Of a stretch of DNA of 64,000 nucleotides, positions 22,805 through 43,828 are shown piece by piece. A program made the translations under genes and the position numbers. Source of the stretch: an uncultured Planctomycetia bacterium (GTDB taxonomy: Bacteria; Omnitrophota; Gorgyraeia; 2-01-FULL-45-10); contig CAYSSS010000001.1 in the NCBI GenBank assembly GCA_964433975.1, positions 78,257 to 142,256 on the forward strand, read 5' to 3'. Positions within the stretch are counted from its first letter, which is position 1. Each line of letters opens with the position of its first letter. The notes beneath the pieces were generated by a model. It searched no databases. It was not told where the DNA came from and saw only the letters and a program-made list of their open reading frames with translations.

Positions 22805-23532
22805 GCGAGAGTATCCTTTTAACAATTGTTATACCGGCTTATAACGAAGAAAGAACCATTGGCAATACGCTTGAAGAAATAGCCGGTTATTTGGATAAGA
22901 GAGGCTTTTCTTATGAAATGATCGTTGTGGACGACGGATCTACAGACGGGACGTTTGAAAACGCTCAAAGTTGCGCAAAGCTTTTCGGTGATTTGAAAGT
23001 TTTGAAAAATAATATCAACATGGGCAAGGGTTATTCGGTAAAAAGGGGCATTCTTTCCGCGCGCGGGGAATATACGCTTTTCATGGATGCGGACAATTCC
23101 ACGTCAATCTATGAATTTGACAAATTCTTACCTTATCTTAAAGACAGGTGCGATGTGGTGATCGCTTCAAGGCGTCTAAAAAATTCAGACGTTAAAGAGC
23201 CGCAGCCGTTCTTAAGAGCAATCATGGGATTATTCTATATAATCCTGTCAAAGATCATGCTGGGCATGCAGATCAACGATTTCAATTGCGGATTTAAAGC
23301 ATACCTGAGCAAGGCGGCAAAGTTTTTATGCGAAAAACAAAAAATGGATGACTGGAGCTTTGATACGGAGCTATTATTTATCGCAAAAAAGCATGGTTTC
23401 AGGATAAAAGAGGTGCCTGTCAGATGGGTCCATAAAAGCGGCTCCAAGGTAAACCCCTTCAAGGACGGCGTAGGATCTTTCCTGAGCCTTATAAAAATAA
23501 AACGGAACGATACAAGTCGCAAATATGACTAA
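22801..23532 (+). CDS. GT2 polyprenyl-phosphate sugar synthase (DPM1-like).
   Basis: IVIPAYNEERTIGNTL and VVDDGSTDGT motifs. 243 aa. Confidence 0.8.
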   Translation: MSESILLTIVIPAYNEERTIGNTLEEIAGYLDKRGFSYEMIVVDDGSTDGTFENAQSCAKLFGDLKVLKNNINMGKGYSVKRGILSARGEYTLFMDADNSTSIYEFDKFLPYLKDRCDVVIASRRLKNSDVKEPQPFLRAIMGLFYIILSKIMLGMQINDFNCGFKAYLSKAAKFLCEKQKMDDWSFDTELLFIAKKHGFRIKEVPVRWVHKSGSKVNPFKDGVGSFLSLIKIKRNDTSRKYD

Positions 23533-25576
23533 GCATAAGAGCAGGGAAAATTGCCTGATATATTTAGCCGACCTCGTGCATAATTATGCCTCGAAGGGCC
23601 CTTATACCTTCCCCATTAATATAGGGTATCTGGCTTCTTACGCAAAGAAACTATACGGTGGTAAAGTCCGGATAAAACTTTTTAAATTCCCGCTTGATTT
23701 AATAAATGCTATAAAAAAACAGAGGCCCGACATCGTTGCCCTCAGCAATTATACCTGGAACATAGATATCAACAATAAAATAATTTCCTGGGTCAAAGCG
23801 GCTTACGAAGGCATAGTAACGGTATTCGGCGGCCCGGATTACCCTGTTACATACGGGGAATCGCTGGATTATTTGAAAAGAACCAAAGACCTTGATTTTT
23901 ACGTCCTTCAGCAGGGCGAAAAAGGCTTTGTCAATATTATTCAAAGATATTTTGAAAGCCCGTCTTTAAACGATATGAAGGAAAAAGTATTGGAAAATTG
24001 CTCTTTTTATAATAGGCGCACGGGCAAGCTTGTTGTTTCTGAGAGGTATAATTGGATAGAGGATATAGGAGAAATACCGTCTCCATATCTGACAGGTGTC
24101 CTGGATGATTTTTTCAAGGATAATCTCATACCGTTAATCGAGACTAACAGGGGCTGTCCTTATTCATGTATTTATTGCGCATGGGGCAAAGCGAGCCAAA
24201 AAAAAGTATTTCGGTTTCCGGCCAAAAGAATAAAGGAAGAGCTTGAATATATCTCAAAAAAAATAGACAATGTCAGTCTTCTTATGATAGCGGATGCGAA
24301 TTTTGGAATATTCGAGAGCGACGCGGATATCGCTAAATTTTTGAAGCATGTCAACAGGAAGTACGGATATCCTAAAGATATTAATCTTACATGGGCGAAG
24401 ACCAATCCTAATCGTGTCGTTAAAATCGCAGAGATATTGGGTGACATGATCAGCGCATCCAGCGCTTTCGGATCATTTCAGACTACAGACCCGGAGGTAA
24501 TGGCTAATATCAAGAGGACAAATTTTACCCTGGAGCAATTTAAAAAAATTCAGGATGTCTTTATTAAAAAAAATATTTCCACGTCCTCAGAATTAATACT
24601 GGCACTGCCGGGCGAAACCAAAAAATCGCATTTGAACGGCTTAAAAGAAATGTTTGAATGCGATACCAACGCTATAGTTAACTACAATTTGCGTCTTTTA
24701 GGCGGGAGCGAATTGAACACAGCCGCAAGCAGGGAAAGATTCGGTATTAAGACAAAATTTAGGCTGATAGACGGCGGATTCGGCAAGTATGGTGACATCC
24801 TTTCTATAGAAAGCGAAGAGATGGTGCTCGGCAATAATACTATGTCCATGGATGATATTCTGTATTTCAGGCCGGCGCATTTTCTGATACAATTTTTATG
24901 GAATTACGGATATTATAAAGAGCCGCTATTCTATCTGAAATCGAAAGAGATTAATCCCATCGATCTTATAATTTCTTTGATCGAAAATAGAAAAAAAGCA
25001 CCCTTATCCATAAAAACAATCCTGGATGACTTCATAAATGAATCATATGGTGAGTGGTTTGACTCAAAGGAGGGGCTATTTAAGCACTACGCCATGCCGG
25101 ATAATTTTGAAAAGTTGAAAAAAGGCGGCTTTGGCAAACTGAACTATAAGTATACATACAAAATATTATTAGAGCGAAAAAATGATTTTGACGAATATCT
25201 ATATGGCATGCTGCGGAATATGCTTGAGGCAAGGAGGCCGGTAACATCCGATGTCAAAGAACAGATAGATGATTTATTTAGCTATACCCGCAATATATTC
25301 ATAGATTTCGAAGATCTTGTTAATGATCGTACCGAGGACAAGGTGATAGGACTTAGATATGATATTTTGGCATGGAAAAAAGAACGCTATAAAAAGGCGT
25401 TGGGAGAATTTAAGTCTGCCGGCCTAAAATTAAGATTTTACCTGCCTGAAGAACAGGCGCTGGCTCTGAAAAAGCTTTGTTTGCAATTTCAGGGGATAGA
25501 TCTCAACCAGACCTTGCGAAAGATGTCGGAATATATCAACGAAAAAGACCTCACTAATAAAGTAGACTACGCATAA
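23525..25576 (+). CDS. Large B12-binding-domain radical SAM enzyme.
   Basis: CxxxCxxC at ETNRGCPYSCIYCAW. The N-terminal region before the cluster is consistent with a cobalamin-binding domain. 683 aa, with a long C-terminal extension. Confidence 0.75.
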   Translation: MTKHKSRENCLIYLADLVHNYASKGPYTFPINIGYLASYAKKLYGGKVRIKLFKFPLDLINAIKKQRPDIVALSNYTWNIDINNKIISWVKAAYEGIVTVFGGPDYPVTYGESLDYLKRTKDLDFYVLQQGEKGFVNIIQRYFESPSLNDMKEKVLENCSFYNRRTGKLVVSERYNWIEDIGEIPSPYLTGVLDDFFKDNLIPLIETNRGCPYSCIYCAWGKASQKKVFRFPAKRIKEELEYISKKIDNVSLLMIADANFGIFESDADIAKFLKHVNRKYGYPKDINLTWAKTNPNRVVKIAEILGDMISASSAFGSFQTTDPEVMANIKRTNFTLEQFKKIQDVFIKKNISTSSELILALPGETKKSHLNGLKEMFECDTNAIVNYNLRLLGGSELNTAASRERFGIKTKFRLIDGGFGKYGDILSIESEEMVLGNNTMSMDDILYFRPAHFLIQFLWNYGYYKEPLFYLKSKEINPIDLIISLIENRKKAPLSIKTILDDFINESYGEWFDSKEGLFKHYAMPDNFEKLKKGGFGKLNYKYTYKILLERKNDFDEYLYGMLRNMLEARRPVTSDVKEQIDDLFSYTRNIFIDFEDLVNDRTEDKVIGLRYDILAWKKERYKKALGEFKSAGLKLRFYLPEEQALALKKLCLQFQGIDLNQTLRKMSEYINEKDLTNKVDYA

Positions 25577-26789: not shown

Positions 26790-26812
26790 AAGTCAAAAAG
26801 AAAGGTGTGATC

Positions 26813-27052
26813 ATGGAAATAAACCCGCATGAGGTGTACACCACCGAAGAGGCTCAGCGCATTCTTAAGATAAGCCCTTCTACTACAATGAGGCTGATTA
26901 AGAAAGGGATGATACGAACTGCTAAGGTCGGCAAACAATATCGTATTCTTGGTAAGGAGCTATTGAGGGTGGTCTCTCCTAAGCTTGAGGATAAGGTTGG
27001 CAGGATCTATAATAAAGGACGGAAGTGGGTCCACGAGGGCATTGAGGAGTAA
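26813..27052 (+). CDS. Small helix-turn-helix DNA-binding protein (excisionase/MerR-like HTH_17 family). Putative transcriptional regulator.
   Basis: EVYTTEEAQRILKISPSTTMRLIKKGMIRTAKVGKQYRILGKELL matches the excisionase-family HTH pattern. The six-frame track starts at the GTG at 26807, but the ATG at 26813 has the better RBS. Confidence 0.65.
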   Translation: MEINPHEVYTTEEAQRILKISPSTTMRLIKKGMIRTAKVGKQYRILGKELLRVVSPKLEDKVGRIYNKGRKWVHEGIEE

Positions 27053-27060: not shown

Positions 27061-28044
27061 ATGTCTAAAGTCTTGATTACCGGCGGTGCCGGATACATAG
27101 GATCTGTTATGAGTAATTTTTTTCTACTGAACGGATACGATGTAAAAGTGGCAGACCTGCTATGGTTTAAAAAAGATGCGCCTTCTCTTTATCGGGGCAA
27201 CCCGCGATACTCGTTTGTTAAGGGCGACATATGCGACGCTGCTTTTAGAGATAGCCTTTTAGAAGATATAGATTTTGTGGTCCATGCCGCGGCGGTTGTA
27301 GGCGATCCCGCAAGCAAAAAATTTCCGGATTTAACATATAAGATCAATTACGAAGCCTCTATTAAACTTATCGATAAAGCGAGAAATTCCAGCGTAAAAG
27401 GTTTTATATTTCTTTCGACATGCTCAAATTATGGTATTTCGGAAGGCCTGGCAAATGAAGAATCGCCCCTTAAGCCGCTCTCTCTGTACGCCGAGACCAA
27501 GGTTGACGTGGAGCGGTACCTGATAGACAAGGTTAGCGACCTGGATTGGGTTATTTGCAGGCTGTCTACTGTGTACGGAGTATCACCAAGAATGAGGTTT
27601 GATCTCACGGTGAATGATTTCGTATTAAATGCTCTTACCACTAAATACCTCAATATATTCCTGCCTTATACATACAGGCCATATATACATGTTTCTGACG
27701 CGGGCCGGGTAATTTCGGAGATTGTAAAAAAATTTGATAAAACAAAAAGAAATATTTTTAATATAGGCTTTGATGGCGAGAATTACCAGAAGATAGAGAT
27801 CGCAAACGCGATCTCCGGATTTATCCCGGACGTCAAGATCAGCGTTACGGAGAAGGGCGCCGATAGCAGGGACTACCAGGTTGATTTTTCTAAACTGCAA
27901 AAATATGTAGATTTAAAAAATTCCTTCAGAGTGGAAAGTGGCATCAAGGAAGTCCTGGGTTTGTTGAATTCCGGCAAAATTACGGATCCTAAAGAGGATA
28001 TTTATTATAACACCTCACCGGACACAGGAGGTCTAACGGGATGA
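27061..28044 (+). CDS. NAD-dependent epimerase/dehydratase (SDR). Candidate LegB/PseB-type NDP-HexNAc 4,6-dehydratase.
   Basis: ITGGAGYIGS Rossmann motif and the YAETK catalytic Y-x-x-x-K. It is first in a nonulosonic-acid gene set. Confidence 0.7.
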   Translation: MSKVLITGGAGYIGSVMSNFFLLNGYDVKVADLLWFKKDAPSLYRGNPRYSFVKGDICDAAFRDSLLEDIDFVVHAAAVVGDPASKKFPDLTYKINYEASIKLIDKARNSSVKGFIFLSTCSNYGISEGLANEESPLKPLSLYAETKVDVERYLIDKVSDLDWVICRLSTVYGVSPRMRFDLTVNDFVLNALTTKYLNIFLPYTYRPYIHVSDAGRVISEIVKKFDKTKRNIFNIGFDGENYQKIEIANAISGFIPDVKISVTEKGADSRDYQVDFSKLQKYVDLKNSFRVESGIKEVLGLLNSGKITDPKEDIYYNTSPDTGGLTG

Positions 28045-29132
28045 AGCTTGAGCTGGATGCCCCCAACGTAGGAGAGCTGGAAAAGCAGTATATTAACGAC
28101 GCTATTGATAGGGGTTTTGTCTCTACGTTCGGGCCCCTGGTAGCCGAATTCGAAGAAAAATTTGCGGCTTTATTAAATATCAAAAATGGAGTTTCAGCGC
28201 AGAGTGGTACGGCAGCCATCCACATAGCTTTGCATGAGCTTGGAATAGGCAAGGACGACGAAGTAATAGTCCCCGCGTCAACATTTATAGCAACGGTTAA
28301 CCCTATTATTTATGTCGGCGCAAAGCCGGTTTTCGTTGACGCGGATTTAAATACATGGAACATGGATCCGTGGGCCATAGAAAAAAATATTACAAAAAAG
28401 ACAAAAGCCATACTCCTGGTCCATCTTTATGGTAATCCCTGTGATATGGATGCGATAATGAAGATAGCTAAAAAAAATAAGTTATTTGTGATCGAAGACG
28501 CGACCGAGAGCCTGGGTTCAAAATATAAGGGAAAATATACGGGAACATTTGGCGATCTCGGATGCTTCAGTTTCAACGGCAATAAGACGATTACCACGGG
28601 TGGCGGTGGCATGGTGGTCGGAAACGATGAAGAAAGGATGGCCCACATAAAATTTCTTGTAAACCAGGCCAGGGAAGATAAGAAGGGGTATTATCACCCG
28701 GAGGTCGGGTTCAACTACAGGATGACTAATATAGAAGCGGCATTAGGCCTTGCTCAGCTGGAAAGGCTGGGAGCTTTCCTGTCCAAAAAGAGATCTTTTG
28801 TTCAGATATATAGGAGCGAACTTAAAAAAGTACCGGCTATACGTTTCCAGGAAGAATGTGACGGCGCAGAATCAATCCCGTGGCTTACTTGCGCGACTTT
28901 TGAGAGCATAACCGATATGGATTTATTGCAGAAAAAATTAAAAGAAAAAGGGATACCGACAAGGAGGGTTTTTATGCCTATAACTAATTTCCCTCCTTAT
29001 AAAAAGTTTAAAATTGAAGAATGCGCCAATGCCGAGCATATCTATGAAAAAGGGCTATGCCTGCCAGGCTCCACCGTGAACAGCGAAGATGATATAAGGT
29101 ATGTATGCAGAACAATAAAAGAGGTAATGTAA
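28041..29132 (+). CDS. DegT/DnrJ/EryC1-family PLP-dependent aminotransferase (LegC/PseC-like).
   Basis: GCFSFNGNKTITTGGGGMVV with the PLP lysine. It is a paralog of the 10988 protein. Confidence 0.85.
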   Translation: MKLELDAPNVGELEKQYINDAIDRGFVSTFGPLVAEFEEKFAALLNIKNGVSAQSGTAAIHIALHELGIGKDDEVIVPASTFIATVNPIIYVGAKPVFVDADLNTWNMDPWAIEKNITKKTKAILLVHLYGNPCDMDAIMKIAKKNKLFVIEDATESLGSKYKGKYTGTFGDLGCFSFNGNKTITTGGGGMVVGNDEERMAHIKFLVNQAREDKKGYYHPEVGFNYRMTNIEAALGLAQLERLGAFLSKKRSFVQIYRSELKKVPAIRFQEECDGAESIPWLTCATFESITDMDLLQKKLKEKGIPTRRVFMPITNFPPYKKFKIEECANAEHIYEKGLCLPGSTVNSEDDIRYVCRTIKEVM

Positions 29133-29134
29133 AG

Positions 29135-29731
29135 ATGAAGAAGATCGTGCTGGTGGGTGGCGGTGGGCATTGTAAGGTTGTCATTGATGCGATAGAATCC
29201 TCCGGCGAATTCGACATATGCGGAATCGTAGATCCTTCGCTTTCCAAAGGAAAATCGGTTTTAAATATAGCGGTATTAGGGAAAGATGATATTTTGCCGG
29301 AATTATTCAGGAAAGGAATAGCACATGCTTTTATAAGCGTCGGTTCTATCGGTAATTGCGATATAAGGAAGAAGATATATAAGGATCTGAAGGATACAGG
29401 GTTTAAATTACCGGTTATTGTACACCCGAAGGCAGCGGTCTCTAAGTATGTCGAATTTGGCGAAGGCGCCTTTGTTGCTGCCGGAGCAGTTATTAACGCC
29501 GATACGAAGATCGGCAAGAACGCGATCATAAATACCTCGTCTTCTGTAGATCATGATTGTGAAATAGGCGATTTCGTGCATATTGCGCCCGGAGCAATCT
29601 TAAGCGGAGGAGTTAAGATTGGCGACGGGGCCCATGTTGGTGTCGGCGCGAGGATAGTTCAGTGTTTAAGCATAAAGGAAAATTCTTTTATCAAGGCCGG
29701 CGCGTTAATCACAGAAAGTACCCTTAAGTAA
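29135..29731 (+). CDS. Hexapeptide-repeat N-acetyltransferase of the NeuD/PglD/LegH family.
   Basis: MKKIVLVGGGGHCKVVIDAIE N-terminal Rossmann-like region, then a left-handed beta-helix repeat region. Confidence 0.75.
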   Translation: MKKIVLVGGGGHCKVVIDAIESSGEFDICGIVDPSLSKGKSVLNIAVLGKDDILPELFRKGIAHAFISVGSIGNCDIRKKIYKDLKDTGFKLPVIVHPKAAVSKYVEFGEGAFVAAGAVINADTKIGKNAIINTSSSVDHDCEIGDFVHIAPGAILSGGVKIGDGAHVGVGARIVQCLSIKENSFIKAGALITESTLK

Positions 29732-30738
29732 TGAATAACAGAACGCTTATTATAGCTGAGGCCGGCGTAAATCACAACGGAAGCGTAAAAACGGCCAAGA
29801 AGCTGGTGGACGCGGCGTTAAGGTCCGGCGCTGATGCCGTGAAATTCCAGACTTTCAGGGCCCAAGACCTTGTTGGCAAATTGGCTTCCAAGGCTCCTTA
29901 TCAGAATAGGACAACCTGCCGGAATGAAACACAACTTGAGATGCTGAGAAGATTAGAGTTAAATGCGGACGATCACAGAACGCTTATAGGCTACTGCAAA
30001 AAAAAGCGCATACAATTCTTATCATCTCCTTTCGATCTATTTGGCGTAGAAATGCTTGATGGCCTGGGGCTTAATATTTTCAAGATCCCATCTGGTGAAA
30101 TTACCAACTTGCCATATCTTCGTAAAATAGGGGGTCTAAACAAAAAGATAATCATGTCAACAGGTATGGCGGACTTGCGCGAGATCAATGACGCCCTGAG
30201 CGCATTAGTGAAGGCAGGAACAAAAAAAGAGAATATAACAATATTGCATTGCAACACAGAATACCCGACTCCGTCGGAAGACGTTAACCTTTTAGCCATG
30301 CTCAGCATAAAAAAACACTTTAATACAGATGTTGGTTATTCGGACCATACGCTTGGCATAGAAGTTCCCGTCGCGGCAGTAGCCTTAGGGGCAAAGATCA
30401 TAGAAAAACACTTAACGCTTGATAGGAATATGAAGGGCCCGGACCATAAAGCGTCATTAGAACCGCATGAATTTGCCATGATGGTAAGAGCCATAAGGAA
30501 CGTGGAAAAAGCGCTAGGGAGCGGGGTAAAGAGGATATCCCGCTCAGAGCTTAATAATATAAAAGTTGTCCGTAAAAGCATAGTCGCAACAAGGCCTATT
30601 AAAAAAGGAGAGATCTTTACAAGCGAAAATCTCGGCGTCAAAAGGCCGGGGACCGGATTAAATCCGATGGAATGGGACAGGGTGATAGGCGGTATAGCAA
30701 AAAAAGATTTTGTCGCGGATGAATGGATCGTATTATGA
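29731..30738 (+). CDS. NeuB-family nonulosonic acid synthase (N-acetylneuraminate / legionaminic / pseudaminic acid synthase-like).
   Basis: LIIAEAGVNHNGS N-terminus and a C-terminal SAF/antifreeze-like domain. 335 aa. Confidence 0.85.
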   Translation: MNNRTLIIAEAGVNHNGSVKTAKKLVDAALRSGADAVKFQTFRAQDLVGKLASKAPYQNRTTCRNETQLEMLRRLELNADDHRTLIGYCKKKRIQFLSSPFDLFGVEMLDGLGLNIFKIPSGEITNLPYLRKIGGLNKKIIMSTGMADLREINDALSALVKAGTKKENITILHCNTEYPTPSEDVNLLAMLSIKKHFNTDVGYSDHTLGIEVPVAAVALGAKIIEKHLTLDRNMKGPDHKASLEPHEFAMMVRAIRNVEKALGSGVKRISRSELNNIKVVRKSIVATRPIKKGEIFTSENLGVKRPGTGLNPMEWDRVIGGIAKKDFVADEWIVL

Positions 30739-31913
30739 GAAAAAAAATATGTATTATTACCGGCAGCAGGGCAGAATGGGGGCTCTTTTATCCGCTTGCG
30801 AAGGAGATAAGGCGCCAAAAAAGCGACTTCGCGCTCCAGATAATAGCTACCGGAGCGCATTTTTCTCAAAGACACGGTCTTACATATAAAGAGATATGCC
30901 GCGATGGCTTCAAAATAACCAAAGCAGTTCCATTGACGGTATCGCAGGATACAGAACAGGGTATATTAAGGGCCTTTGGCGGCGCCGTGATCAGTTTAGG
31001 TAAAGCGCTAAGGTCAGCGAGGCCCGATTTGGTCATTCTGCTGGGGGACAGGTTCGAGACATTTGCCGCGGCCGTAGCGTGCCTTTTTGAGAAGATACCC
31101 GTGGCGCACATACACGGCGGCGAATTAACGGAGGGATCCCTTGATGACATGATGAGGCATTCGGTTACTAAGCTGGCGCATATACATTTTACGTCCCATG
31201 AAGAGCATAAAAAAAGGGTCATTCAGATGGGGGAGGATCCTTCAAGGGTATTCTGCGTCGGGGCGCTTGCCCTTGATAATATCAACGGCAGAAAATTATT
31301 GAGTAAAAAAACTTTGGAAGACAAGCTGCGTTTTAAATTGGGAAAAGACACGCTAATGGTCACATTCAATCCGCCTACAGCCAGCGGAAAACTTAAGATC
31401 GAACGCCAGTTTAAAAATTTACTGGATGCTCTTGATGAATTAAAAAGCATAAAGGTGATATTTACAAAATCTAGTCCCGACATCCATTCAAAAACCATTG
31501 CGCGCCTATCAGACAGATATATATCCTCCAGGTCGAAAAAATGCATAGTGCGGTCTTCGCTGGGGCGAGAAGTTTATTTAAGCCTTTTAAAATACACGGC
31601 TGCAGTCGTGGGAAATTCATCGAGCGGCCTGATTGAAGCGCCTTCGTTGGGCGTACCTACGGTTAATATAGGCGACAGACAGAAAGGGAGATTGTGCGCG
31701 AGATCAGTGATCAATTGCGAACCTGAAAAACTATTGATATTAAAGTCCATAAGAAAAGCGCTCGGCAAGAATTTCAGAGAAGAATGCAAAAAAGTCAAAA
31801 ATCCTTATGACAAGGGAAGCGCCTCTAGATCGATAGTTTCAGTCTTAAAAAGGACACGCATAGACAGTGATTTTATAAAGAAGAGATTTCATGACCTATG
31901 GCGATACGAATAA
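30723..31913 (+). CDS. Hydrolysing UDP/GDP-N-acetylhexosamine 2-epimerase (NeuC/LegG-like).
   Basis: KICIITGSRAEWGLFYPL and HIHGGE motifs of NeuC-type 2-epimerases. Confidence 0.8.
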   Translation: MDRIMRKKICIITGSRAEWGLFYPLAKEIRRQKSDFALQIIATGAHFSQRHGLTYKEICRDGFKITKAVPLTVSQDTEQGILRAFGGAVISLGKALRSARPDLVILLGDRFETFAAAVACLFEKIPVAHIHGGELTEGSLDDMMRHSVTKLAHIHFTSHEEHKKRVIQMGEDPSRVFCVGALALDNINGRKLLSKKTLEDKLRFKLGKDTLMVTFNPPTASGKLKIERQFKNLLDALDELKSIKVIFTKSSPDIHSKTIARLSDRYISSRSKKCIVRSSLGREVYLSLLKYTAAVVGNSSSGLIEAPSLGVPTVNIGDRQKGRLCARSVINCEPEKLLILKSIRKALGKNFREECKKVKNPYDKGSASRSIVSVLKRTRIDSDFIKKRFHDLWRYE

Positions 31914-33217
31914 TACCAAGATTGGATATTAAAGGACCCAACCTCGTGAAGGGTATTCATCTTGAGGGTTTGAGGGTGTTAGGGAAGCCCGAAGATTTTG
32001 CGCGGTATTACTACGAACACGGCGCCGATGAATTGATATACATGGACGTTGTCGCCAGTCTTTACGGAAGAAACAGTGTTTTAGAAATAGTGCGGCGGGC
32101 CTCAAAAGAGATCTTCATACCTTTGACGGTCGGCGGGGGCTTAAGGACTCTCGACGACATCCGCAAGGCGTTGCACGCGGGTGCTGATAAAGTTTCTCTG
32201 AATACCGCGGCAATACAGGATCCCCAGCTCATAAGAAGGGCCGCGCGTAGGTTCGGTTCATCTACTATTGTAGTATCCATCGAGGCTATAAAAAAAGAAG
32301 AAGGTATCTATGAAGCGTACACTAATAATGGCCGCGAAGAAACGGGTGTCGATGCCCTGAATTGGGCTATGCGCGCAGCTGAACTGGGCGCCGGAGAGAT
32401 GCTCGTAACCTCTATCGACAAGGAAGGGACCGGAGAAGGTTTTGATATAGAATTGACAAGAAAGATAGCCGAATCGGTGCCGATCCCTGTCATCGCCTGC
32501 GGAGGCGCGGGGAAGATCAGCCATATACACGATGTCATACAAAAGGGAAAGGCTGACGCGGTAAGCATAGCGTCTATCCTCCACTATAAATTTATTCAGG
32601 GAGCCACAAAACATGGGGATTTTTCGGAAGAAGGGAATGTCGAATATCTTAAAAGCGGGCGCATGTTTTCAAGCATTCAGGGGGCTTCTCTTGATAGTAT
32701 TAAAAAAAATTTGATCGAAAGAAACATTTTTTGCAGGTTCGAAGAAATTGATGTTTTATGCGACTCGATGAAACTTTCAAAACCTTTTTTGGGCATATGC
32801 CTGGGAATGCAGCTTCTGATGAGCGACAGCGATGAATTTGGAATCCACAAGGGATTGAATATCATAGATGGGCACGTAAAGAGGTTTCCGGATTTTAACG
32901 ATAAGAAAGAGCGTATTAAGGTTCCCCATATAGAATGGAACAAGTTATTTTTTAACGAAAGCATTGGCGTTGAGGGGTCGATTTTGCGCAACTTTCGTAA
33001 CGGGGAATTTATGTATTTTGTGCACTCTCATTTTGTAAAACCAGATGCGGAAGATATCACTATAACATATACCGATTATTGCGGGATCCTTTATTGTTCC
33101 GGCATAAGGAAGGATAATCTCATGGCATTTCAATTTCATCCGGAAAAGAGCGGGTCGCGCGGCGTACAAATATACAAAAACTTCAAAGAGATTATATTAA
33201 AAGGGAGGGCGCAATGA
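31898..33217 (+). CDS. Fused imidazole-glycerol-phosphate-synthase-like protein. An N-terminal HisF-like cyclase (WbuZ-like) is joined to a C-terminal HisH-like glutamine amidotransferase (WbuY-like).
   Basis: The N-terminus MAIRIIPRLDIKGPNLVKGIHLEG...GADELIYMDV is HisF-like. The C-terminus has LGICLGMQLL (the GATase nucleophile Cys) and VHSHF...FQFHPEKS (His/Glu). The domain order is HisF then HisH. Confidence 0.8.
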   Translation: MAIRIIPRLDIKGPNLVKGIHLEGLRVLGKPEDFARYYYEHGADELIYMDVVASLYGRNSVLEIVRRASKEIFIPLTVGGGLRTLDDIRKALHAGADKVSLNTAAIQDPQLIRRAARRFGSSTIVVSIEAIKKEEGIYEAYTNNGREETGVDALNWAMRAAELGAGEMLVTSIDKEGTGEGFDIELTRKIAESVPIPVIACGGAGKISHIHDVIQKGKADAVSIASILHYKFIQGATKHGDFSEEGNVEYLKSGRMFSSIQGASLDSIKKNLIERNIFCRFEEIDVLCDSMKLSKPFLGICLGMQLLMSDSDEFGIHKGLNIIDGHVKRFPDFNDKKERIKVPHIEWNKLFFNESIGVEGSILRNFRNGEFMYFVHSHFVKPDAEDITITYTDYCGILYCSGIRKDNLMAFQFHPEKSGSRGVQIYKNFKEIILKGRAQ

Positions 33218-34371
33218 TTGAAGCAAAGGATCTTCTGACGATGTATAATTTGCCGTCTACGGTTAAGTTTTGTAAAAAATGCACGATGTCCAACCAAAGA
33301 CCTCGGATCACTTTTAACGAAGAAGGGGTTTGCTCAGCCTGTCAATTTTCCGATTATAAGAAATCGAAAGTCGATTGGTCCCAGAGAGAGGCCGAATTAC
33401 AGGCGCTTTTAAAGAAGCATAAAAGAGATGATGGAGGATACGAGATATTGGTCCCTTCAAGCGGCGGGAAAGACAGTGTCCGCGTTGCCCACGAATTAAA
33501 ATATAAATACGGGATGAACGTCTTGACGGTAACTTGGTCGCCGCATCTTTACACCGATATAGGGTTTAAAAACTTTCAGTCCATGATACACGTAGGCGGT
33601 TTCGATAATATTTTAGGGACTCCCAATGGAGTTATTCATCGTAAACTGACCAAATTATCGTTTGAGATTCTAGGTGAACCATTTCAGCCTTTTGTATATG
33701 GGCAGACTAATTTCCCCTTACAGATCGCGGTTAGGTACAAGATCCCGCTCATAATGTATGGTGAGAACGGAGAAGTCGAATACGGCGGAGACATGAAAAA
33801 CGCCTTTAAGCCAACTCGGGATTATAGATCTGACCACAAGAAACACTATTTTTCCGGTATTGCCCCCGAAGATTTTGTACATTTCGGTATTAAAGAATCG
33901 GATTTAGCGCCTTATAAGGCCCCGCCAAACGAAGAATTGGACGCATTAGGCGCCCAGATCCACTTTTACAGTTATTATCGTAAATGGATACCGCAGGAAA
34001 ATTTTTATTATGCCGTAGAGCATACGAACTTTATCCCCAATACCATAAGAAACGAAGGCACGTATTCCAAATATGCTTCTATTGACGATAAGATAGACGG
34101 ATTTCATTACTATCTCTCATTCATAAAATTCGGTATAGGAAGGGCTACGTCAGATTCGGCCCATGAAATCCGCGACGGGCATCTGACAAGAGAAGAGGGC
34201 GTAAAGCTCGTAAGAAAATTTGACGGGGAATTTCCACAAAAATATTTCGATGTTTTTTTGGAATATTGCGGGATTGATGAAAAATATTTTTGGGAAGCTA
34301 TAGATGCCTGGCGTTCTCCGCATATCTGGAAAAAAGAAGGCATGAAATGGATGCTGCGCTGTCAGATTTAA
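33214..34371 (+). CDS. PP-loop ATPase N-acetyl-sugar amidotransferase (WbuX/WbpG/PseA-like).
   Basis: N-terminal zinc ribbon (CKKCTMSNQRP...CSAC) and the PP-loop SGGKDS. Confidence 0.8.
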   Translation: MIEAKDLLTMYNLPSTVKFCKKCTMSNQRPRITFNEEGVCSACQFSDYKKSKVDWSQREAELQALLKKHKRDDGGYEILVPSSGGKDSVRVAHELKYKYGMNVLTVTWSPHLYTDIGFKNFQSMIHVGGFDNILGTPNGVIHRKLTKLSFEILGEPFQPFVYGQTNFPLQIAVRYKIPLIMYGENGEVEYGGDMKNAFKPTRDYRSDHKKHYFSGIAPEDFVHFGIKESDLAPYKAPPNEELDALGAQIHFYSYYRKWIPQENFYYAVEHTNFIPNTIRNEGTYSKYASIDDKIDGFHYYLSFIKFGIGRATSDSAHEIRDGHLTREEGVKLVRKFDGEFPQKYFDVFLEYCGIDEKYFWEAIDAWRSPHIWKKEGMKWMLRCQI

Positions 34372-34402
34372 TGAATCCCGGACTAAAAAGAGAGGAAGGA
34401 AT

Positions 34403-35509
34403 ATGGAGAAAAAAGACTTAATTAATGTCATCGTTAAAGAAGGCACATCTATTAAGACGGCCATGAAGCAAATGGACTCCACGGGACTCAAGATACTCTT
34501 TGTAGTCGATTCATCAGGCAGTCTCATAGGTGCGATGACTGACGGGGATTTCCGCAGGTGGATCCTGGATGGTAAAAGTTGTAACGAGGACGTACGAAAC
34601 CCGTGCAACAAAAATCCAATAACATTTTCATCTGAAGATTATGACATAGAAAAGATAAAACAGATAATGATAAAGGAGAGATTGGAATGCGTCCCCATAA
34701 TTGACGGCAACCGGACGATTACGGACGCGCTTTTCCGGGAAGATGTTTTCGGGAATAAATATAAGAAGGCAAAGAAAGCGCTGACGGTCCCAGTTGCCAT
34801 AATGGCAGGCGGAGAGGGATCCAGGCTGTCACCCTTTACAAAGATATTGCCGAAACCTCTCATACCGTTAAACGAAAAGCCTATTGCAGAAGTTATCATG
34901 GACCGTTTTGCCGAATTTGGTTGCGACGAGTTTTATCTTCTTCTGGGATATAAGGGCGTGATGATACAGTCGTATTTTGACAATGCCAAGAGTGGCCATA
35001 AGCCCATATATATGTATGAGAAGGAGCCCAGCGGGACAGCGGGCTCGCTCAAGCTGCTGTCCGACAAGCTCTCGACCGACTCTCTTTTTGTTTCCAATTG
35101 CGACATCCTGATCGAGGCCGACTATGCTAATATGTATGAATCTCACCTGAAGAATAACTGCGACATAACCATAGTAGGGGCCATGAGGCATTTTGTCATT
35201 CCTTACGGCGTTATAGATATGGGACCAGGCGGTAATATAGGTAAGTTAATCGAAAAACCGGAGTACGATTTTCTTGTGAACACAGGAATGTATATATTGA
35301 ATAAAAACACACTTTCCTATATTCCTAAAAAAGGAAAGTTTGATTTTACGGAGCTTATTAAAAAAACGCGGGAAAAAGGCGGTAAGATCAGCGTGTATCC
35401 CGTCAGTGAAAAATCATGGTTAGATATAGGTCAGATTGAATTACTGGAGGAGGCTGTTTCGGGAACGCTTGGAGAGAAATGGAGCCGCATGAAAAGAGGG
35501 GCCGCATGA
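34403..35509 (+). CDS. CBS-domain-pair plus sugar-phosphate nucleotidyltransferase (PtmE-like).
   Basis: The N-terminus has paired CBS repeats. The nucleotidyltransferase motif is VAIMAGGEGSRLSPFTKILPKPL. Confidence 0.75.
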   Translation: MEKKDLINVIVKEGTSIKTAMKQMDSTGLKILFVVDSSGSLIGAMTDGDFRRWILDGKSCNEDVRNPCNKNPITFSSEDYDIEKIKQIMIKERLECVPIIDGNRTITDALFREDVFGNKYKKAKKALTVPVAIMAGGEGSRLSPFTKILPKPLIPLNEKPIAEVIMDRFAEFGCDEFYLLLGYKGVMIQSYFDNAKSGHKPIYMYEKEPSGTAGSLKLLSDKLSTDSLFVSNCDILIEADYANMYESHLKNNCDITIVGAMRHFVIPYGVIDMGPGGNIGKLIEKPEYDFLVNTGMYILNKNTLSYIPKKGKFDFTELIKKTREKGGKISVYPVSEKSWLDIGQIELLEEAVSGTLGEKWSRMKRGAA

Positions 35510-36231
35510 TCGAGAATAAAAAAATATTGGCCCTCATACCAGCCCGCGGCGGCTCAAAAGGGATTCCCGGAAAGAACATAAAGAACTTTAATGGAAAGCC
35601 TTTGATAGCCTGGACCATAGAAGAAGCTAAAAAGAGTAAATATCTGGATAAGATAGTGGTTAGCACCGACTCCGGCGCAATAGCCGATATCGCAGTTAAA
35701 TATGGCGCCGAAGCCCCTTTCATTAGGCCCGGAGGACTGGCAAGTGATAATGCCAATATGATGGATGTCGTTCTTCACTGCATCAATTTTTTTCAAGATA
35801 CAGGCGACAACTATGACATCATTGTTCTGCTCCAGCCCACTTCTCCGCTTAGAAGGGCGGATGATATTGACGGAGCAATTGAATTTTTCATTGAAAAAAA
35901 TGCGAATGCTGTCTTAGGCGTTGTAGCGTGTGACCACCCCCCGCAACTTGCAGGGATATTGCCGAAAGACTTAAGTATGAATAATTTTGTTCAGGGAAAT
36001 AGCGGGAATAAAAACCGCCAGGAACTGAGGGCCTATTACAGAGTCAATGGCGCGCTTTATTTAGCCGACATAGATTTCATTTTGCGTAAACGGGACTGGT
36101 ATGGAGCAAAAACATTTGCCTATATCATGAAAAAAGAACGCTCAGCGGATATAGACGATCTTTTCGATTTTATGTTAGCGGAATTCGTTATGAAGGCACA
36201 GGGTCCTCTAGGTATGGGGGATGGCTTATGA
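35506..36231 (+). CDS. CMP-nonulosonic acid synthetase (acylneuraminate cytidylyltransferase family, NeuA/LegF-like).
   Basis: ILALIPARGGSKGIPGKNIK motif. The ATGA overlap with the upstream stop puts the likely start at 35506, not at the track start 35479. Confidence 0.8.
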   Translation: MIENKKILALIPARGGSKGIPGKNIKNFNGKPLIAWTIEEAKKSKYLDKIVVSTDSGAIADIAVKYGAEAPFIRPGGLASDNANMMDVVLHCINFFQDTGDNYDIIVLLQPTSPLRRADDIDGAIEFFIEKNANAVLGVVACDHPPQLAGILPKDLSMNNFVQGNSGNKNRQELRAYYRVNGALYLADIDFILRKRDWYGAKTFAYIMKKERSADIDDLFDFMLAEFVMKAQGPLGMGDGL

Positions 36232-38075
36232 TCTTGGCAGTGATATCTGACATGGAGCAATATTGGTTATTGGCGGATGCGGTCCCCGACATAAAACAAG
36301 TGCGCATCTTGTGTGATAACCCGGGAATCCATGATTTTTTGGAGGAAAAGAGAATATCATTTGATGCTTTAGATGAAGAGATATTGCGGAAAGAATGGAA
36401 TTCTATAAATATGTGGGCTTGCGAAAAGGCGCTCCTATTTGATCTTTCGGCCGGCGACAGGTCTATTCTGAATGGCATAGAGCTTAACAAAGCCTTGAAC
36501 GCCTATTTTTCCTTTTATCTGGTCAGTTTTTTGAAAAATTATCTTTTTTCGATATACGTAATAGACCGGTATAAGCCGAGCGAAATGTTTATATTCGAGA
36601 ATATCCATTGTCCGCCATTCCCCGCTTTTAATGGAAATTATTTTTTAAATAGTTTCCTGAAAGGACTAGCCCAAAAGAACGGCATCAAGGTGAACCAGCT
36701 AAAGTGCGGTACGCGCAAAGAAGAGAAGGCGTCCATGAAAGACCGCCTCAGAGTATTATTGCAGAAATCCTATGGTGGATTACCGGTTGCGGTAGATAAG
36801 AAAAAGATACTTATTGCATGCGGAGATGCAGGCCATCTGGGCCCGGTTCTTAAAAAACTTAAATATAAGGAGAAAGATATATTTGTTTATAATGATGAAT
36901 TTCGTTTTGGCCAGCTCAAATCCTGCTTAAAGGAAAAGATGCACTATGTGATTTCCGATTCTTTCCTCAAAAAAAGCCGGCAAGTAGAAGACGGCCCTGA
37001 TCACAAGAAAGAGTTTACGGACATGATAAAGCATTTATGCGGCGATAAATGGTTCACCTACGAAGGATATGATTTAAATCGCCGTATAGAAAATGCCATC
37101 CTGGATAACATAAATCCATATATCGACAATGTCCGCCAATGGACACGGATATATTCTGAAATGGTAAATAAATTGGATGTCTGTGGGGTCATCATGAACC
37201 AGGACGAGATGCCGGACAGGGCGTTCATGGCAGCCTTTTTCAAGTCCCGGAAAATCCCCGTATTCTGTATTTCACACGGTTACGGCACCGTACGGTTTTC
37301 TTTACCTATTTCAAATCGACGCTTTGACCTTTCGTATACATTTCTGCATTCCGAGCTTGAAAAACATGTCTTTACATCCAGGGGCTGGGATGAAAAAAAT
37401 ATAAGGGTCATGGGTATACCCAGGTATGACAGGCTAATGAAACTAATGGATGAAAAAAACAGGAATAAAACAAAACCGGAAAGAATGAGGATCCTGTATT
37501 CCGGTGGAATGATGCCTTATTATACTCCCTCCGTACCCTCATGGATAGGTGTATGCAAATATTCATTTGGAACTACGATGAGGAGGGATTTGAAGTTTGT
37601 AATGAAGGCATTAGAAGGCTATCCGGTTGAACTTGTAATAAAACCGCGTTATCTTGTAGATGAGGGCCCGCTGGCAGATTTTGTTATGAAGCATAAGGGC
37701 AAAAGCAATGTCACCATAGCAAAAGCTAAAACGGATTTTTTTAAACTTTTATCGGGCTGTCAGGCCATATTTTTGGCGCACTGGTCGACCGCGGTCATGG
37801 AAGGGATCATCGCACGGATTCCCACGGTCGTCTTGAATTACAACGGGATAGAAGATGATTTTCCGTTCGCCGATCACGACCTGTGCACCGTTACCCGGGA
37901 TCCGCGTGAACTCAAAGATATAATAGCGGAAATATATTCGGCTTTTATTTCCGGCAAAAAGTCCGCTCATGCACCTGTTTTTGGCAAGGACAAGGCGTTC
38001 TATACGGGCATTAATGACAGCCTGAATACTGAAAGAGTGACGGACTGTATAATGGAGACGATTGGGGCAAGATGA
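36228..38075 (+). CDS. Hypothetical protein. Possible TagF/Capsule_synth-like (CDP/CMP-activated donor) transferase. Paralog of 39550-40836.
   Basis: 615 aa with no TM helices. The C-terminal region ...RILYSGGMMPYYTPS...ELVIKPRY parallels KILYICPNLE...LLIKPHPRY in the 39550 protein. Both resemble the ...LYAPT.R ... K.HP pattern of glycerophosphotransferase/KpsS-type enzymes. Confidence 0.3.
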   Translation: MILAVISDMEQYWLLADAVPDIKQVRILCDNPGIHDFLEEKRISFDALDEEILRKEWNSINMWACEKALLFDLSAGDRSILNGIELNKALNAYFSFYLVSFLKNYLFSIYVIDRYKPSEMFIFENIHCPPFPAFNGNYFLNSFLKGLAQKNGIKVNQLKCGTRKEEKASMKDRLRVLLQKSYGGLPVAVDKKKILIACGDAGHLGPVLKKLKYKEKDIFVYNDEFRFGQLKSCLKEKMHYVISDSFLKKSRQVEDGPDHKKEFTDMIKHLCGDKWFTYEGYDLNRRIENAILDNINPYIDNVRQWTRIYSEMVNKLDVCGVIMNQDEMPDRAFMAAFFKSRKIPVFCISHGYGTVRFSLPISNRRFDLSYTFLHSELEKHVFTSRGWDEKNIRVMGIPRYDRLMKLMDEKNRNKTKPERMRILYSGGMMPYYTPSVPSWIGVCKYSFGTTMRRDLKFVMKALEGYPVELVIKPRYLVDEGPLADFVMKHKGKSNVTIAKAKTDFFKLLSGCQAIFLAHWSTAVMEGIIARIPTVVLNYNGIEDDFPFADHDLCTVTRDPRELKDIIAEIYSAFISGKKSAHAPVFGKDKAFYTGINDSLNTERVTDCIMETIGAR

Positions 38076-39553: not shown

Positions 39554-40836
39554 AAGATGCGCCGCGATATGATGTGATTTTTTGGGGCCATATAAGCAAT
39601 GGAATCGAGAGGTGTCTCCCCTTGATGGTTAGTTTAAAAGAGAAGGGCCTGAAGCCGCTTTTGTTTTATCAAAATTATAATTTTAGAGACGGGCTCTCCG
39701 GGTTGCAGATCAGGATCGTCCAGGCATACGGCCTTGATGTCATGGATTATTCCCATTTCCTTAAACGCGACCTACTATTAAGAATCATAACTTTTTTTGT
39801 TAATATGTTCAAGCACACGGCCAGATGCATGTTTTTTTATAACAAGTTCATAGGGCTCCGCTCAAAATTACTGCAATTGCGTATTAATGAGGGTTTTATA
39901 GGGCGGATGCTCGGCGAATTAAGGCCGAGGATCGGTTTTTTTGATAATATTTCATTGATAGAATACTGCGCGTATCCTTATGGCAGCTACTATATAAAAA
40001 AAGTATCGGATAAAATGGGTATTAAGAGTTTTGATATCTTTAACGGCATGCCCAATCATCCGCTTAAACTTGAGAGAAAGTACATAGATTTTGACAGGTA
40101 TTATGTCCCGCATGAATATGAGAGGCAAAAATACTATGCCGAGCACATCGAAAGAGACGCACCTATACTTGTATTTGGAGATCCGCGTTTTGACACAAAC
40201 TGGAAGGAAAATATCAAAAGAATTTTCTCGGAAGATATCAGGGCCGGAATAAAACGGCTCGGCATCGGGTCCAAGAGAAAAATATTGTATATATGCCCGA
40301 ACCTTGAATGCATCGGGGGTGATTCCGAAAAATACAGGAATATCGCGGATGTTGCAAGGGCGGCGAAAGCATTAGGCAATACGGCGCTGCTTATCAAGCC
40401 CCACCCCAGATACCGCTATGAAGAGAAGATAAGGCTTGTTATGAAGAAGAATAGTTTTAAAGATTTCTTTATTTTAGAAGATGACCCGCTGATATGTTAT
40501 TTGGAGCACGTGGATTTTATAGTATCGTTGGCAACGGCCGCGTTCTTTGACCTTCTGCCGGAAGGCCATAAAAAGATAGTCATATATGACAGAGGCGATT
40601 TTTGCCAATCCACGACTCTTATAAATATATTCAAGGAGGGTTTTAATTATTTTACTGGATATGACGACTTCCTGGCTTTTTTGAACGGAAAGAACGCGGC
40701 AGGAAGCGCGCATCCGGATATTGAGGGATTCTGCAGACAATGGATAGCCGGCGGAAACGGGCTTGATACCGTGGTGGAAAACATGTCAAGCGATATTTTG
40801 AACGAGTTCGATAAATTGAGAAAGGGGCAAATATGA
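39550..40836 (+). CDS. Hypothetical protein. Possible TagF/Capsule_synth-like transferase with a K-P-H-P motif. Paralog of 36228-38075.
   Basis: 428 aa, soluble. It has LLIKPHPRY and ILVFGDPRFD motifs. I cannot confirm the family assignment. Confidence 0.3.
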   Translation: MKDAPRYDVIFWGHISNGIERCLPLMVSLKEKGLKPLLFYQNYNFRDGLSGLQIRIVQAYGLDVMDYSHFLKRDLLLRIITFFVNMFKHTARCMFFYNKFIGLRSKLLQLRINEGFIGRMLGELRPRIGFFDNISLIEYCAYPYGSYYIKKVSDKMGIKSFDIFNGMPNHPLKLERKYIDFDRYYVPHEYERQKYYAEHIERDAPILVFGDPRFDTNWKENIKRIFSEDIRAGIKRLGIGSKRKILYICPNLECIGGDSEKYRNIADVARAAKALGNTALLIKPHPRYRYEEKIRLVMKKNSFKDFFILEDDPLICYLEHVDFIVSLATAAFFDLLPEGHKKIVIYDRGDFCQSTTLINIFKEGFNYFTGYDDFLAFLNGKNAAGSAHPDIEGFCRQWIAGGNGLDTVVENMSSDILNEFDKLRKGQI

Positions 40837-41594
40837 ATTTAAAAAAGAAGCTTGCGGAAGGCAGCATGACGATTGGATCATGGATTACCCTGGGCGACTA
40901 TGCTGCGACGGAGATCATGGCAAAGGCCGGTTTCGACTGGCTTGTTATAGATATGGAGCACAGCGCTATAGAGCTGGAGCGGGCGCAGAATCTCATCAGG
41001 ATAATAGAGTTAAGCGGATGCGTGCCACTGGTCCGGGTTTCTGAAAACAACGCCAACATTATTAAGAGGGTTATGGATGCGGGTTCGCACGGAGTGATTG
41101 TACCTATGGTTAACAACAGAGAGGATGCGTTACGCGCGGTAAGCGCGGTAAAATATCCGCCCAGGGGGACGAGAGGCGTAGGGCTCGGCCGCGCCCAGAA
41201 TTACGGCCTGGACTTCGAAAAATATAACAGGTGGCAGGAGAAGAGCTCCGTAGTCATCGTCCAAATAGAGCATATAGATGCTGTAAATAATCTGGAGGAG
41301 ATACTCGAAGTAGAAGGTGTCGACGGTTTCATGATCGGCCCGTACGATCTGTCCGCTTCTTTAGGGAGGCCGGGCGGGTTTGGCCACACGGACTTTAAAA
41401 AGGCGCTTGCCAAGGTCACTGCCGTTTCCAGGCGCATCGACAAAGCCCGCGGCATTCATGTTGTCCAGCCCGACAGTATTGAGGTTGATAGAAGGATAAA
41501 GGAAGGATATAATTTCATCGTATTCAGCTTTGACGCGCTTTTTTTGGGCAGCTGCTGCGCAGACAAGCTTTCAAGGGTAAGGAGAAGAAAATAA
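40833..41594 (+). CDS. HpcH/HpaI-family class II pyruvate aldolase.
   Basis: GSWITLGDYAATEIMAKAGFDWLVIDMEHSAIE...VRV..........GSHGVIVPMV...ED.......KYPPRG.RG matches the HpcH/HpaI aldolase core. 253 aa. Confidence 0.75.
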   Translation: MNLKKKLAEGSMTIGSWITLGDYAATEIMAKAGFDWLVIDMEHSAIELERAQNLIRIIELSGCVPLVRVSENNANIIKRVMDAGSHGVIVPMVNNREDALRAVSAVKYPPRGTRGVGLGRAQNYGLDFEKYNRWQEKSSVVIVQIEHIDAVNNLEEILEVEGVDGFMIGPYDLSASLGRPGGFGHTDFKKALAKVTAVSRRIDKARGIHVVQPDSIEVDRRIKEGYNFIVFSFDALFLGSCCADKLSRVRRRK

Positions 41595-43824: not shown

Positions 43825-43828
43825 CATT

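Follow-up and report, generated by a model that had tools for sequence, protein, structure and literature searches.

A probable legionaminic-type nonulosonic acid cassette with a non-LegB first enzyme and a truncated HisF/HisH-like protein in an uncultured Omnitrophota bacterium

The window analysed here is a 64-kb stretch from an uncultured Planctomycetia bacterium, placed among the Omnitrophota in the GTDB lineage (GenBank assembly GCA_964433975.1, contig CAYSSS010000001.1, positions 78,257 to 142,256); overall it is a one-directional glycan-biosynthesis island with a GC content of 0.38-0.49. Positions 27061-36231 are filled by nine open reading frames (ORFs) on the + strand, the edges of the interval coinciding exactly with ORF boundaries, and successive ORFs either overlap by 1-31 nucleotides (nt) or leave a 31-nt gap. 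Assignments were made by hidden Markov model (HMM) scans with Pfam and NCBIfam, using the curated NCBIfam cut-offs. In order, the genes code for an extended short-chain dehydrogenase/reductase (SDR) at the LegB position, a LegC-type aminotransferase, a NeuD/PglD-family acetyltransferase, a NeuB-family synthase, a NeuC-type hydrolysing 2-epimerase, a protein of 439 amino acids (aa) with HisF- and HisH-like parts, a WbuX amidotransferase, a CBS-domain nucleotidyltransferase and a cytidine monophosphate (CMP)-nonulosonate synthetase (Table 1). Such a gene list is far beyond chance. A first-pass annotation, made from the sequence alone, had named the same nine genes, and the list is real: the ORF boundaries fit and eight of the nine assignments match the HMM results. 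Only its order needs a slight correction, the NeuC gene lying before the HisF/HisH ORF and the WbuX gene after it. The nine genes are likely to form an operon with translational coupling that makes a 5,7-diamino nonulosonic acid in CMP-activated form, legionaminic (Leg) and not pseudaminic (Pse) in type, with an acetamidino module damaged by an in-frame deletion and with an SDR other than LegB.

The comparison of Leg and Pse models is consistent along the pathway. The aminotransferase scores 411.2 bits on LegC (TIGR04181, just under the cut-off of 420), its best family by far, versus 262 bits on PseC (cut-off 423); by these scores the enzyme does not group with those of the Pse pathway, a possible objection that the first-pass annotation had considered. 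The synthase reaches 496 bits with NeuB versus 295 with PseI (cut-off 340), the 2-epimerase matches the NeuC model and stays at 97 bits on the wecB model, under the cut-off of 210, and the acetyltransferase lies above the cut-off of TIGR03570, so that the DegT, NeuD/PglD, NeuB and NeuC assignments made at first reading stand. The same is true for the NeuA-type CMP-synthetase, recognised by CTP_transf_3 with 93 bits. On PseF (TIGR03584) it stays at 177 bits, short of the cut-off of 206, as an enzyme from outside the Pse route should. The SDR gives 36 bits on the PseB model, whose cut-off is 408, and neither a PseG nor a GNAT-type PseH gene was found in the cassette by the Pfam and NCBIfam scans. 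Moreover, 2-epimerization of the NeuC type is absent from the Pse route, and a PtmE homolog marks the route linked to guanosine diphosphate (GDP) (PMC5378307). Because the model scores and the presence of a NeuC-type enzyme point in the same direction, the pathway is assigned by sequence to the Leg type.

The nucleotidyltransferase had been described as PtmE-like, and the HMM search does reveal both a CBS pair and an NTP_transferase domain; residues 1-116 match the CBS pair of KpsF/GutQ, and the GDP-forming enzymes HddC and ManC are among its nearest solved relatives. It is presumed to be a guanylyltransferase. Since the PtmE architecture, the HddC and ManC relatives and the GDP-sugar enzyme nearest to the SDR all agree, the pathway is probably GDP-linked. 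From this we infer the following order of reactions: the CBS-nucleotidyltransferase would produce a GDP-hexosamine; the SDR, the presumed source of the 4-keto GDP-sugar, would oxidize it on C4; the LegC-type enzyme would aminate C4 and the PglD-type enzyme would acetylate the new amine; the NeuC-type enzyme would then take off GDP with 2-epimerization, NeuB would join the product with phosphoenolpyruvate and, finally, the cytidylyltransferase would form the CMP-sugar. This set of LegC-, PglD-, NeuC- and NeuB-type enzymes, CMP-synthetase and CBS-nucleotidyltransferase in one cassette resembles the GDP-linked CMP-legionaminic acid pathway of Campylobacter jejuni and Tannerella forsythia. Differently from that pathway, PtmA, PtmF and PgmL genes are missing from the cassette and the first enzyme is not LegB, but a member of a separate SDR family that lacks the dehydratase Glu.

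This SDR scores 54 bits on the LegB model (TIGR04180), against a cut-off of 475, while the SDRs found upstream of LegC in the homologous loci L003, L006 and L010 score 440-496 bits and display the motif TSTSE[TV]YG. It had been annotated as an SDR dehydratase, a name that is not confirmed: the protein fails the LegB, PseB and other dehydratase models, and in the alignment the acid/base Glu of the dehydratase motif T-[SD]-E, present in LegB-like proteins and in a GMD encoded in the window, is replaced by Ser both in this protein and in the PDB entry 6VO6. The best PDB match is indeed 6VO6/6VO8 (191 bits, E 2e-55, 40% identity over 300 residues), other matches being far lower, 70-84 bits for C4 epimerases and no more than 63 bits for dTDP-glucose dehydratases. 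We take 6VO6/6VO8 to be C. jejuni Cj1427, a non-dehydrating GDP-heptose C4-dehydrogenase. The reaction of Cj1427 has been described (PMC9978623). The two proteins share the motifs GGAGYIGS, T-x-S-x-YG, YxxxK and SPRMRxDLxVNDF; conversely, the window SDR has STCSNYG in place of NTNSGYG, and it belongs to a nonulosonate cassette with an aminotransferase and not to a heptose-modification locus.

STCSNYG is invariant in every member of the SDR family examined. The family comprises 7931 scored proteins at E 1e-30 or better, the best 120 of which show at least 57% identity, and in six of the seven contexts sampled the gene is coupled to those for a DegT aminotransferase, an acetyl- or formyltransferase, NeuB, NeuC and a CBS-nucleotidyltransferase; the remaining context, from Bacteroidota, is different. 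SDRs of this type head Leg-like cassettes in Omnitrophota, in Syntrophorhabdaceae, in a metagenome-assembled genome (MAG) labelled 'Proteobacteria' at NCBI, and in others. A tblastn search of plasmids with the SDR gave nothing above 38% identity and generic names only, and no paper linking Cj1427-type enzymes to nonulosonate clusters was found in the literature. By sequence, then, the protein is not LegB and is a member of a separate large family, which may be either an unconventional 4,6-dehydratase or an oxidase of C4 only; the cassette is a widespread Leg-like variant with an uncharacterised first step. A LegB encoded elsewhere in the window was considered and rejected: only the GMD (8869-9843, accompanied by a DegT gene) and a PglF/WbpM-like membrane dehydratase (148-2043) are present, neither of them LegB, and the homologous cassettes of other genomes have no GMD or PglF/WbpM-like genes within 9 kb.

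The 439-aa ORF had been interpreted as a single chain fusing HisF to HisH. It is one ORF, with the HisF part at the N-terminus and a HisH-like part at the C-terminus, but of HisH it contains only the C-terminal two thirds, the match starting at profile position 61. The HisF/WbuZ-like (beta/alpha)8 barrel is complete; it scores 270 bits on WbuZ (TIGR03572, cut-off 300) and 275 on hisF (cut-off 295), slightly short of both cut-offs, and its AlphaFold2 (AF2) model superimposes on HisF structures with Foldseek TMt values of 0.90-0.95; a Foldseek search of the PDB with the model of the whole 439-aa protein found again only HisF. The barrel is 71-76% identical to free-standing proteins at the WbuZ position of homologous cassettes and retains 96 of the 99 positions that are near-invariant among 35 aligned proteins. 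Residues R4, E45, K98 and E167, presumably the counterparts of the tunnel-gate residues of Thermotoga maritima HisF, are invariant in alignment A3. The barrel is followed by the C-terminal extension of the WbuZ subfamily, with the pattern EGNxEFLKSGR...CR common to free-standing WbuZ proteins of 283-306 aa.

The lack of the first third of HisH is evident by every comparison. Both GATase models match the ORF only from profile position 61, an intact WbuY used in tblastn against the window starts to align at its residue 55-64, and in a phmmer comparison with PDB sequences T. maritima HisH aligns from residue 80, its PGVGHF being in the part without counterpart. When the protein is aligned with full-length homologs a single gap of 80-100 columns appears, which runs from the end of the WbuZ extension through the linker into the N-terminal part of HisH and takes in the near-invariant D-Y-x-x-G-N and L-P-G-V-G-x-F. 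Thus IDYGMGN and PGVGAF, the oxyanion strand, are absent from the remnant, while GICLGMQ and FHPEKSG, which carry the Cys-His-Glu triad, are present. Neither a second HisH/WbuY nor a frameshifted remnant of the missing segment was found in the 64-kb window by tblastn and three-frame reading. These features indicate that the apparent fusion is the product of an in-frame deletion that removed the first third of HisH. In imidazole glycerol phosphate (IGP) synthase the oxyanion hole comes from the PGVG strand (49-PGVG-52 in T. maritima HisH), and the sheet of the class I amidotransferase has beta1-beta3 as its core. Since both the PGVG strand and the beta1-beta3 core are missing, glutamine hydrolysis is unlikely and the glutaminase half is probably dead.

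WbuX had been recognised as a PP-loop enzyme of the WbuX/PseA type with an SGGKDS motif, which is confirmed by TIGR03573 (345 bits versus a cut-off of 203) and by the translation, where VPSSGGKDS and a CKKC...CSAC (CxxC...CxxC) tetracysteine motif are found. The WbuX/WbuZ/WbuY-type acetamidino module proposed with it is present, but with an incomplete WbuY part. In such modules WbuX would activate the N-acetyl carbonyl with ATP, and ammonia, normally released by the glutaminase WbuY and conducted through the WbuZ barrel, would give the acetamidino group. Here an in-frame deletion would have joined wbuZ to a wbuY without its first third; with an inactive glutaminase half, amidination would either run on free ammonia or be lost. 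L. pneumophila serogroup 1 has an O-antigen of poly-Leg5Am7Ac. The best PDB match of WbuX is 8WEX (E 1e-111), the N-acetyl sugar amidotransferase (NASAT) of Legionella pneumophila (PMC10607449). The Legionella-like WbuX, considered together with the Leg5Am7Ac O-antigen, fits a Leg5Am7Ac-type product, which is plausible; both its amidination and its 9-deoxy status are uncertain, and which nitrogen carries the amidino group cannot be read from sequence. According to a reference cited in PMC3694923, serogroups other than 1 contain the 5-acetamidino-7-acetamido D-glycero-D-talo isomer. HisH normally matters, to judge from a Sphingomonas polysaccharide locus, where a colony-morphology screen recovered transposon insertions in the WbuX, HisF2 and HisH genes alike (PMC11340318).

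The closest syntenic relatives of the locus, L012 and L013, were brought in by the search for SDR homologs. They share with the window YfhO, PMT, B12-radical SAM and GT2 genes and the HTH_17 gene, followed by the cassette, with identities of 86% (L012) and 83% (L013) for the SDR and of 87% and 77% for LegC. In both, wbuZ (290 aa) and wbuY (221 aa) are intact and stand as two genes, which overlap by 4 nt and precede wbuX. Adjacent wbuZ (283-306 aa), wbuY (210-248 aa) and wbuX are also found in GTDB species-representative genomes of Omnitrophota, Aminicenantes and Bacteroidota MAGs, where identity of WbuZ to the window is 71% or less. In the remaining part of the cassette the proteins of L012 are 70% (CBS-nucleotidyltransferase) and 71% (CMP-synthetase) identical. 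When window positions 31898-34371 are compared with L012 14873-17612 the locus appears as a mosaic, which suggests that the amidino module was replaced by recombination. DNA alignment to L012 and L013, at about 60% identity, is uninformative on the deletion breakpoints, since the alleles of the module differ. Only this genome carries the truncation, which is a lineage-specific lesion.

Fusion of the two domains is by itself common. Among the best 119 non-self matches, 34 are proteins of 489-565 aa with both domains, and public data contain many full-length fusions of 460-565 aa, with either domain first; the best 150 of the 50%-identity cluster representatives include 26 clusters fused in the order HisF-HisH and 33 in the order HisH-HisF, all full-length, and none of the truncated length. 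The novelty that had been attributed to the fusion and to its reversed domain order is thus not supported, wbuZ-wbuY being the normal gene order in these cassettes. Cassettes of the same type occur in Omnitrophota, Aminicenantes, Bacteroidota, Chloroflexota and Verrucomicrobiota, and in loci L012-L018. One of them, L018, encodes the full-length HisF-HisH fusion P0003 (520 aa), which resembles the window protein in domain order, in the WbuZ extension and in the HisF part (71% identity), and which has the same neighbours, namely NeuB, NeuC, a PglD-like enzyme, WbuX, a CBS-nucleotidyltransferase, the STCSNYG SDR and DegT. Differently from the window protein, which is about 80 residues shorter, fusions of this type have a complete HisH with IDYGMGN and PGVGAF. 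As separate observations, three longer proteins, P0253 (707 aa), P0263 (784 aa) and P0272 (933 aa), show three matched stretches with the HisF-like part at residues 460-760, and may represent either the amidino module fused in three parts or some different multi-domain architecture; moreover, Omnitrophota locus L002 has two WbuX paralogs (5573-6721 and 9543-10739), which could mean two amidinations.

Some of these data weigh against a simple deletion with loss of function. The remnant shows little decay, as it keeps 32 of 34 near-invariant HisH positions together with the catalytic triad, the two losses being G346E in PH[IV]GWN and W358V. Its identity to homologs is below the expectation from the identity of the HisF part (mean residual -0.061, the lowest of 35, with a pair standard deviation of 0.046), a signal of relaxed selection that is weak, within about 1.3 standard deviations. 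AF2 is confident on the remnant, with a predicted local distance difference test (pLDDT) of 85-95 (86 for the whole 439-aa protein), a value driven by an alignment made of intact homologs, which says nothing on the stability of the remnant; some residual role of the latter may therefore persist. The amidino module is also more divergent from L012 (WbuZ 66%, WbuY 41%, WbuX 49%) than the flanking genes (64-87%), and the ancestor could have had either two genes or a full-length fusion. Finally, in Verrucomicrobiota locus L009 (7989-10124) wbuX comes directly after wbuZ and no wbuY lies within 8 kb, so some lineages may do without the glutaminase or have it supplied in trans. A functional bifunctional HisF-HisH protein, channelling glutamine-derived ammonia to WbuX for the synthesis of CMP-Leg5Am7Ac, would agree with the uninterrupted ORF, seen on four contigs, with the conserved triad and positions, and with the existence of full-length fusions of the same order in homologous cassettes; it is nevertheless unlikely, because the protein is some 60-70 residues short of every intact homolog, including beta1 (IDYGMGN) and the PGVGAF strand, shares its truncated length with no other protein among the best 120 and the best 150 matches, and has lost the glycine of the PH[IV]GWN motif. 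Still less probable is an artefact of assembly or binning, or a minority variant, in an organism with intact wbuZ and wbuY. Such an origin would explain why the 439-aa protein forms a single-member cluster and the same allele is in no second genome, and all records may come from one sample; however, the exact protein is on four contigs of different sources, among them an independent Logan assembly of SRR8437217 that is 100% identical over the 7.3-kb locus L011, which covers most of the cassette; the junction keeps the reading frame, and the missing segment has left no remnant in any frame. For this identity of the Logan assembly an artefact was judged unlikely, and an in-frame deletion in a real genome is preferred.

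The identity of the sugar has to be weighed in the same way. The least credible idea of all is that the product is pseudaminic acid or some other isomer outside the Leg type; it can appeal to PseF as the best NCBIfam match of the CMP-synthetase and to the uncharacterised type of the SDR, but PseB, PseC and PseI all score below their cut-offs, PseG and PseH are lacking, and the Pse pathway was rejected on HMM scores and gene content. A more serious competitor concerns C9, since without the dehydratase Glu the '9-deoxy' identity that defines a Leg product is not secured. If the SDR were a non-dehydrating GDP-sugar C4 oxidase similar to Cj1427, the later O9 hydroxyl would be retained and the product would be a 5,7-diamino-3,5,7-trideoxy-nonulosonic acid with a 9-OH, and not legionaminic acid; the 2-oxoglutarate released by the aminotransferase would serve to recycle the NADH formed. 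The match to 6VO6/6VO8, the shared T-x-S in place of the Glu of LegB and GMD, the high LegB scores of true LegB proteins at the same position elsewhere, and the tight coupling of the STCSNYG SDR to an aminotransferase in six of seven sampled contexts, with no other dehydratase annotated nearby, speak for it. On the other hand, reasoning on catalytic residues alone cannot fix the activity, the invariant Cys beside the catalytic Thr could serve as acid/base, the SDR family is very common, and the literature that could be searched gave no natural 3,5,7-trideoxy diamino nonulosonate. Published surveys mostly report masses of the 9-deoxy Leg and Pse type, which also counts against a C4 oxidase. It is accordingly held as a minor, tentative alternative to a Leg-type product.

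Compared with known amidination systems, the locus resembles the WbuX/WbuY/WbuZ modules of Escherichia coli O145, of Pseudomonas aeruginosa (WbpG), of C. jejuni (PseA/PtmG with the HisH/HisF-like Cj1315c/Cj1314c) and of L. pneumophila (NASAT), as a WbuX-family PP-loop enzyme with SGGKDS and a Zn tetracysteine motif is found beside HisF- and HisH-like sequences. Unlike those systems, here the two parts share one ORF, the first third of HisH is missing and the order is Z-(Y)-X. A HisF-like barrel and a HisH-like Cys-His-Glu triad are also the elements of IGP synthase, a HisH-HisF heterodimer in T. maritima and a single chain in the order HisH-HisF in yeast His7; the window protein differs in that it is not involved in histidine biosynthesis, its order is opposite to that of His7 and its HisH part is incomplete. 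The cassette is hence of a known kind, with a widespread uncharacterised SDR variant and a lineage-specific deletion in the ammonia-supplying subunit.

Table 1. Coordinates of the cassette, of the parts of the 439-aa ORF and of associated genes in the window.
Feature	Position	Strand	Evidence and remarks
Small HTH_17 protein, 81 aa, GTG start	26807..27052	+	PF12728 47 bits
Extended SDR at LegB position, STCSNYG motif	27061..28044	+	PF01370 121 bits; 4-nt overlap with aminotransferase gene
LegC-type pyridoxal phosphate aminotransferase (DegT; C4 amination)	28041..29132	+	PF01041 373 bits; TIGR04181 411.2 bits
NeuD/PglD-family N-acetyltransferase (LegH role)	29105..29731	+	TIGR03570 200 bits vs cut-off 161; PglD_N and Hexapep
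NeuB-family nonulosonate synthase (LegI role)	29731..30738	+	TIGR03569 496 bits vs cut-off 400
NeuC-type hydrolysing NDP-sugar 2-epimerase (LegG role)	30723..31913	+	TIGR03568 429 bits vs cut-off 236
439-aa HisF/HisH-like ORF	31898..33217	+	His_biosynth 224 bits; GATase 53 bits
HisF/WbuZ-like (beta/alpha)8 barrel, residues 1-232	31898..32593	+	His_biosynth 224 bits
C-terminal extension of WbuZ subfamily, residues 233-282	32594..32743	+	Ends at deletion junction near ...NIFCRFEE; pLDDT 58-91
HisH/WbuY remnant, residues 283-439	32744..33217	+	Cys-His-Glu triad kept; about first 55-70 domain residues missing
WbuX amidotransferase	33214..34371	+	TIGR03573 345 bits vs cut-off 203
CBS pair and sugar-1-phosphate nucleotidyltransferase (PtmE architecture)	34403..35509	+	CBS 41 bits; NTP_transferase 116 bits
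CMP-nonulosonate synthetase (LegF/NeuA role)	35479..36231	+	CTP_transf_3 93 bits vs 22.6
615-aa protein	36228..38075	+	4-nt overlap with CMP-synthetase gene; no Pfam match
GT-C type glycosyltransferases	5752-7491, 13505-14929, 15642-17363, 19538-21205, 55738-57306, 17360-19534, 12099-13508	one strand	

Three of the starts listed in Table 1 are probably placed too far upstream: in L011 the acetyltransferase gene was called independently with 198 aa, which puts its start at 29135, which is probably the true one rather than 29105, and those of the NeuC-type epimerase and of the CMP-synthetase are probably 30735 and 35506. The cassette is bordered by two conserved genes. The HTH_17 gene lies directly 5' of the SDR gene, with 89% identity and the same place in L012 and L013, and its product may be a regulator of the cassette. 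On the other side, the gene of the 615-aa protein, a protein of no known family, is translationally coupled to the cassette; the protein is kept in the same place in L012 (55% identity) and L013 (38%); its L012 ortholog has a weak Glyphos_transf match, and the protein is a candidate transferase for the activated sugar.

The remaining part of the island contains other genes for sugar synthesis. At 40833-47968 there is a second CMP-sugar sub-cluster, with an HpcH/HpaI aldolase, a B12-radical SAM enzyme, an FkbM methyltransferase, a cytidylyltransferase with a strong CTP_transf_3 match (174 bits), a GFO/IDH/MocA oxidoreductase, a SIS isomerase, a D-2-hydroxyacid dehydrogenase and an inositol-monophosphatase-family protein; its content resembles that of a route to a further activated keto-deoxy acid sugar. 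Scattered through the island there are four B12-binding radical SAM enzymes (7488-8795, 21230-22804, 23525-25576 and 41594-43090), with similar ones in the related loci L012-L015 and L017; their role may be the C-methylation of sugars or a different radical modification. The PglF/WbpM-like membrane UDP-GlcNAc 4,6-dehydratase scores 182 bits on the PseB model over residues 294-584, and the GMD (391 bits) and DegT pair, at 8869-12118, suggests a GDP-perosamine-like branch. Membrane glycosyltransferases of the GT-C type are dense and all on one strand, with five PMT_2, one YfhO and one GT87-like protein. A carbamoyltransferase ORF at 4605-5765 (386 aa, TTG start) begins after a gap of 427 nt, and its match to Carbam_trans_N starts only at position 190 of the profile; this may be a further case of a gene truncated at its N-terminus. 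Less expected neighbours, at 3366-4178 and 52677-54179, are a papain-family cysteine protease adjoining a Wzy_C/O-antigen-ligase protein and an RtcB RNA ligase inside the glycan island.

Nonulosonic acids decorate flagella, S-layers, capsules and lipopolysaccharides, and shape the recognition of cells by phages and by the immune system. In this cassette the striking 'fusion' is a lesion and not an invention, and public data already abound in amidino proteins with HisF and HisH fused; the truncated glutaminase represents, in turn, a natural test of the need for a HisH-like subunit in sugar amidination. The SDR is the more useful lead, being a very large and well conserved family at the LegB position of Leg-like cassettes in several uncultured phyla. 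A doubtful proposal is that the STCSNYG SDR, which takes the place of LegB in this and in many environmental cassettes, could oxidize C4 without dehydration in coupling with the aminotransferase, and that this widespread variant would make an undescribed nonulosonic acid with a 9-hydroxyl (7-amino-7-deoxy-neuraminic acid type), here possibly amidinated. If the SDR is indeed non-dehydrating, annotation pipelines would be calling 'legionaminic acid' what is a different sugar.

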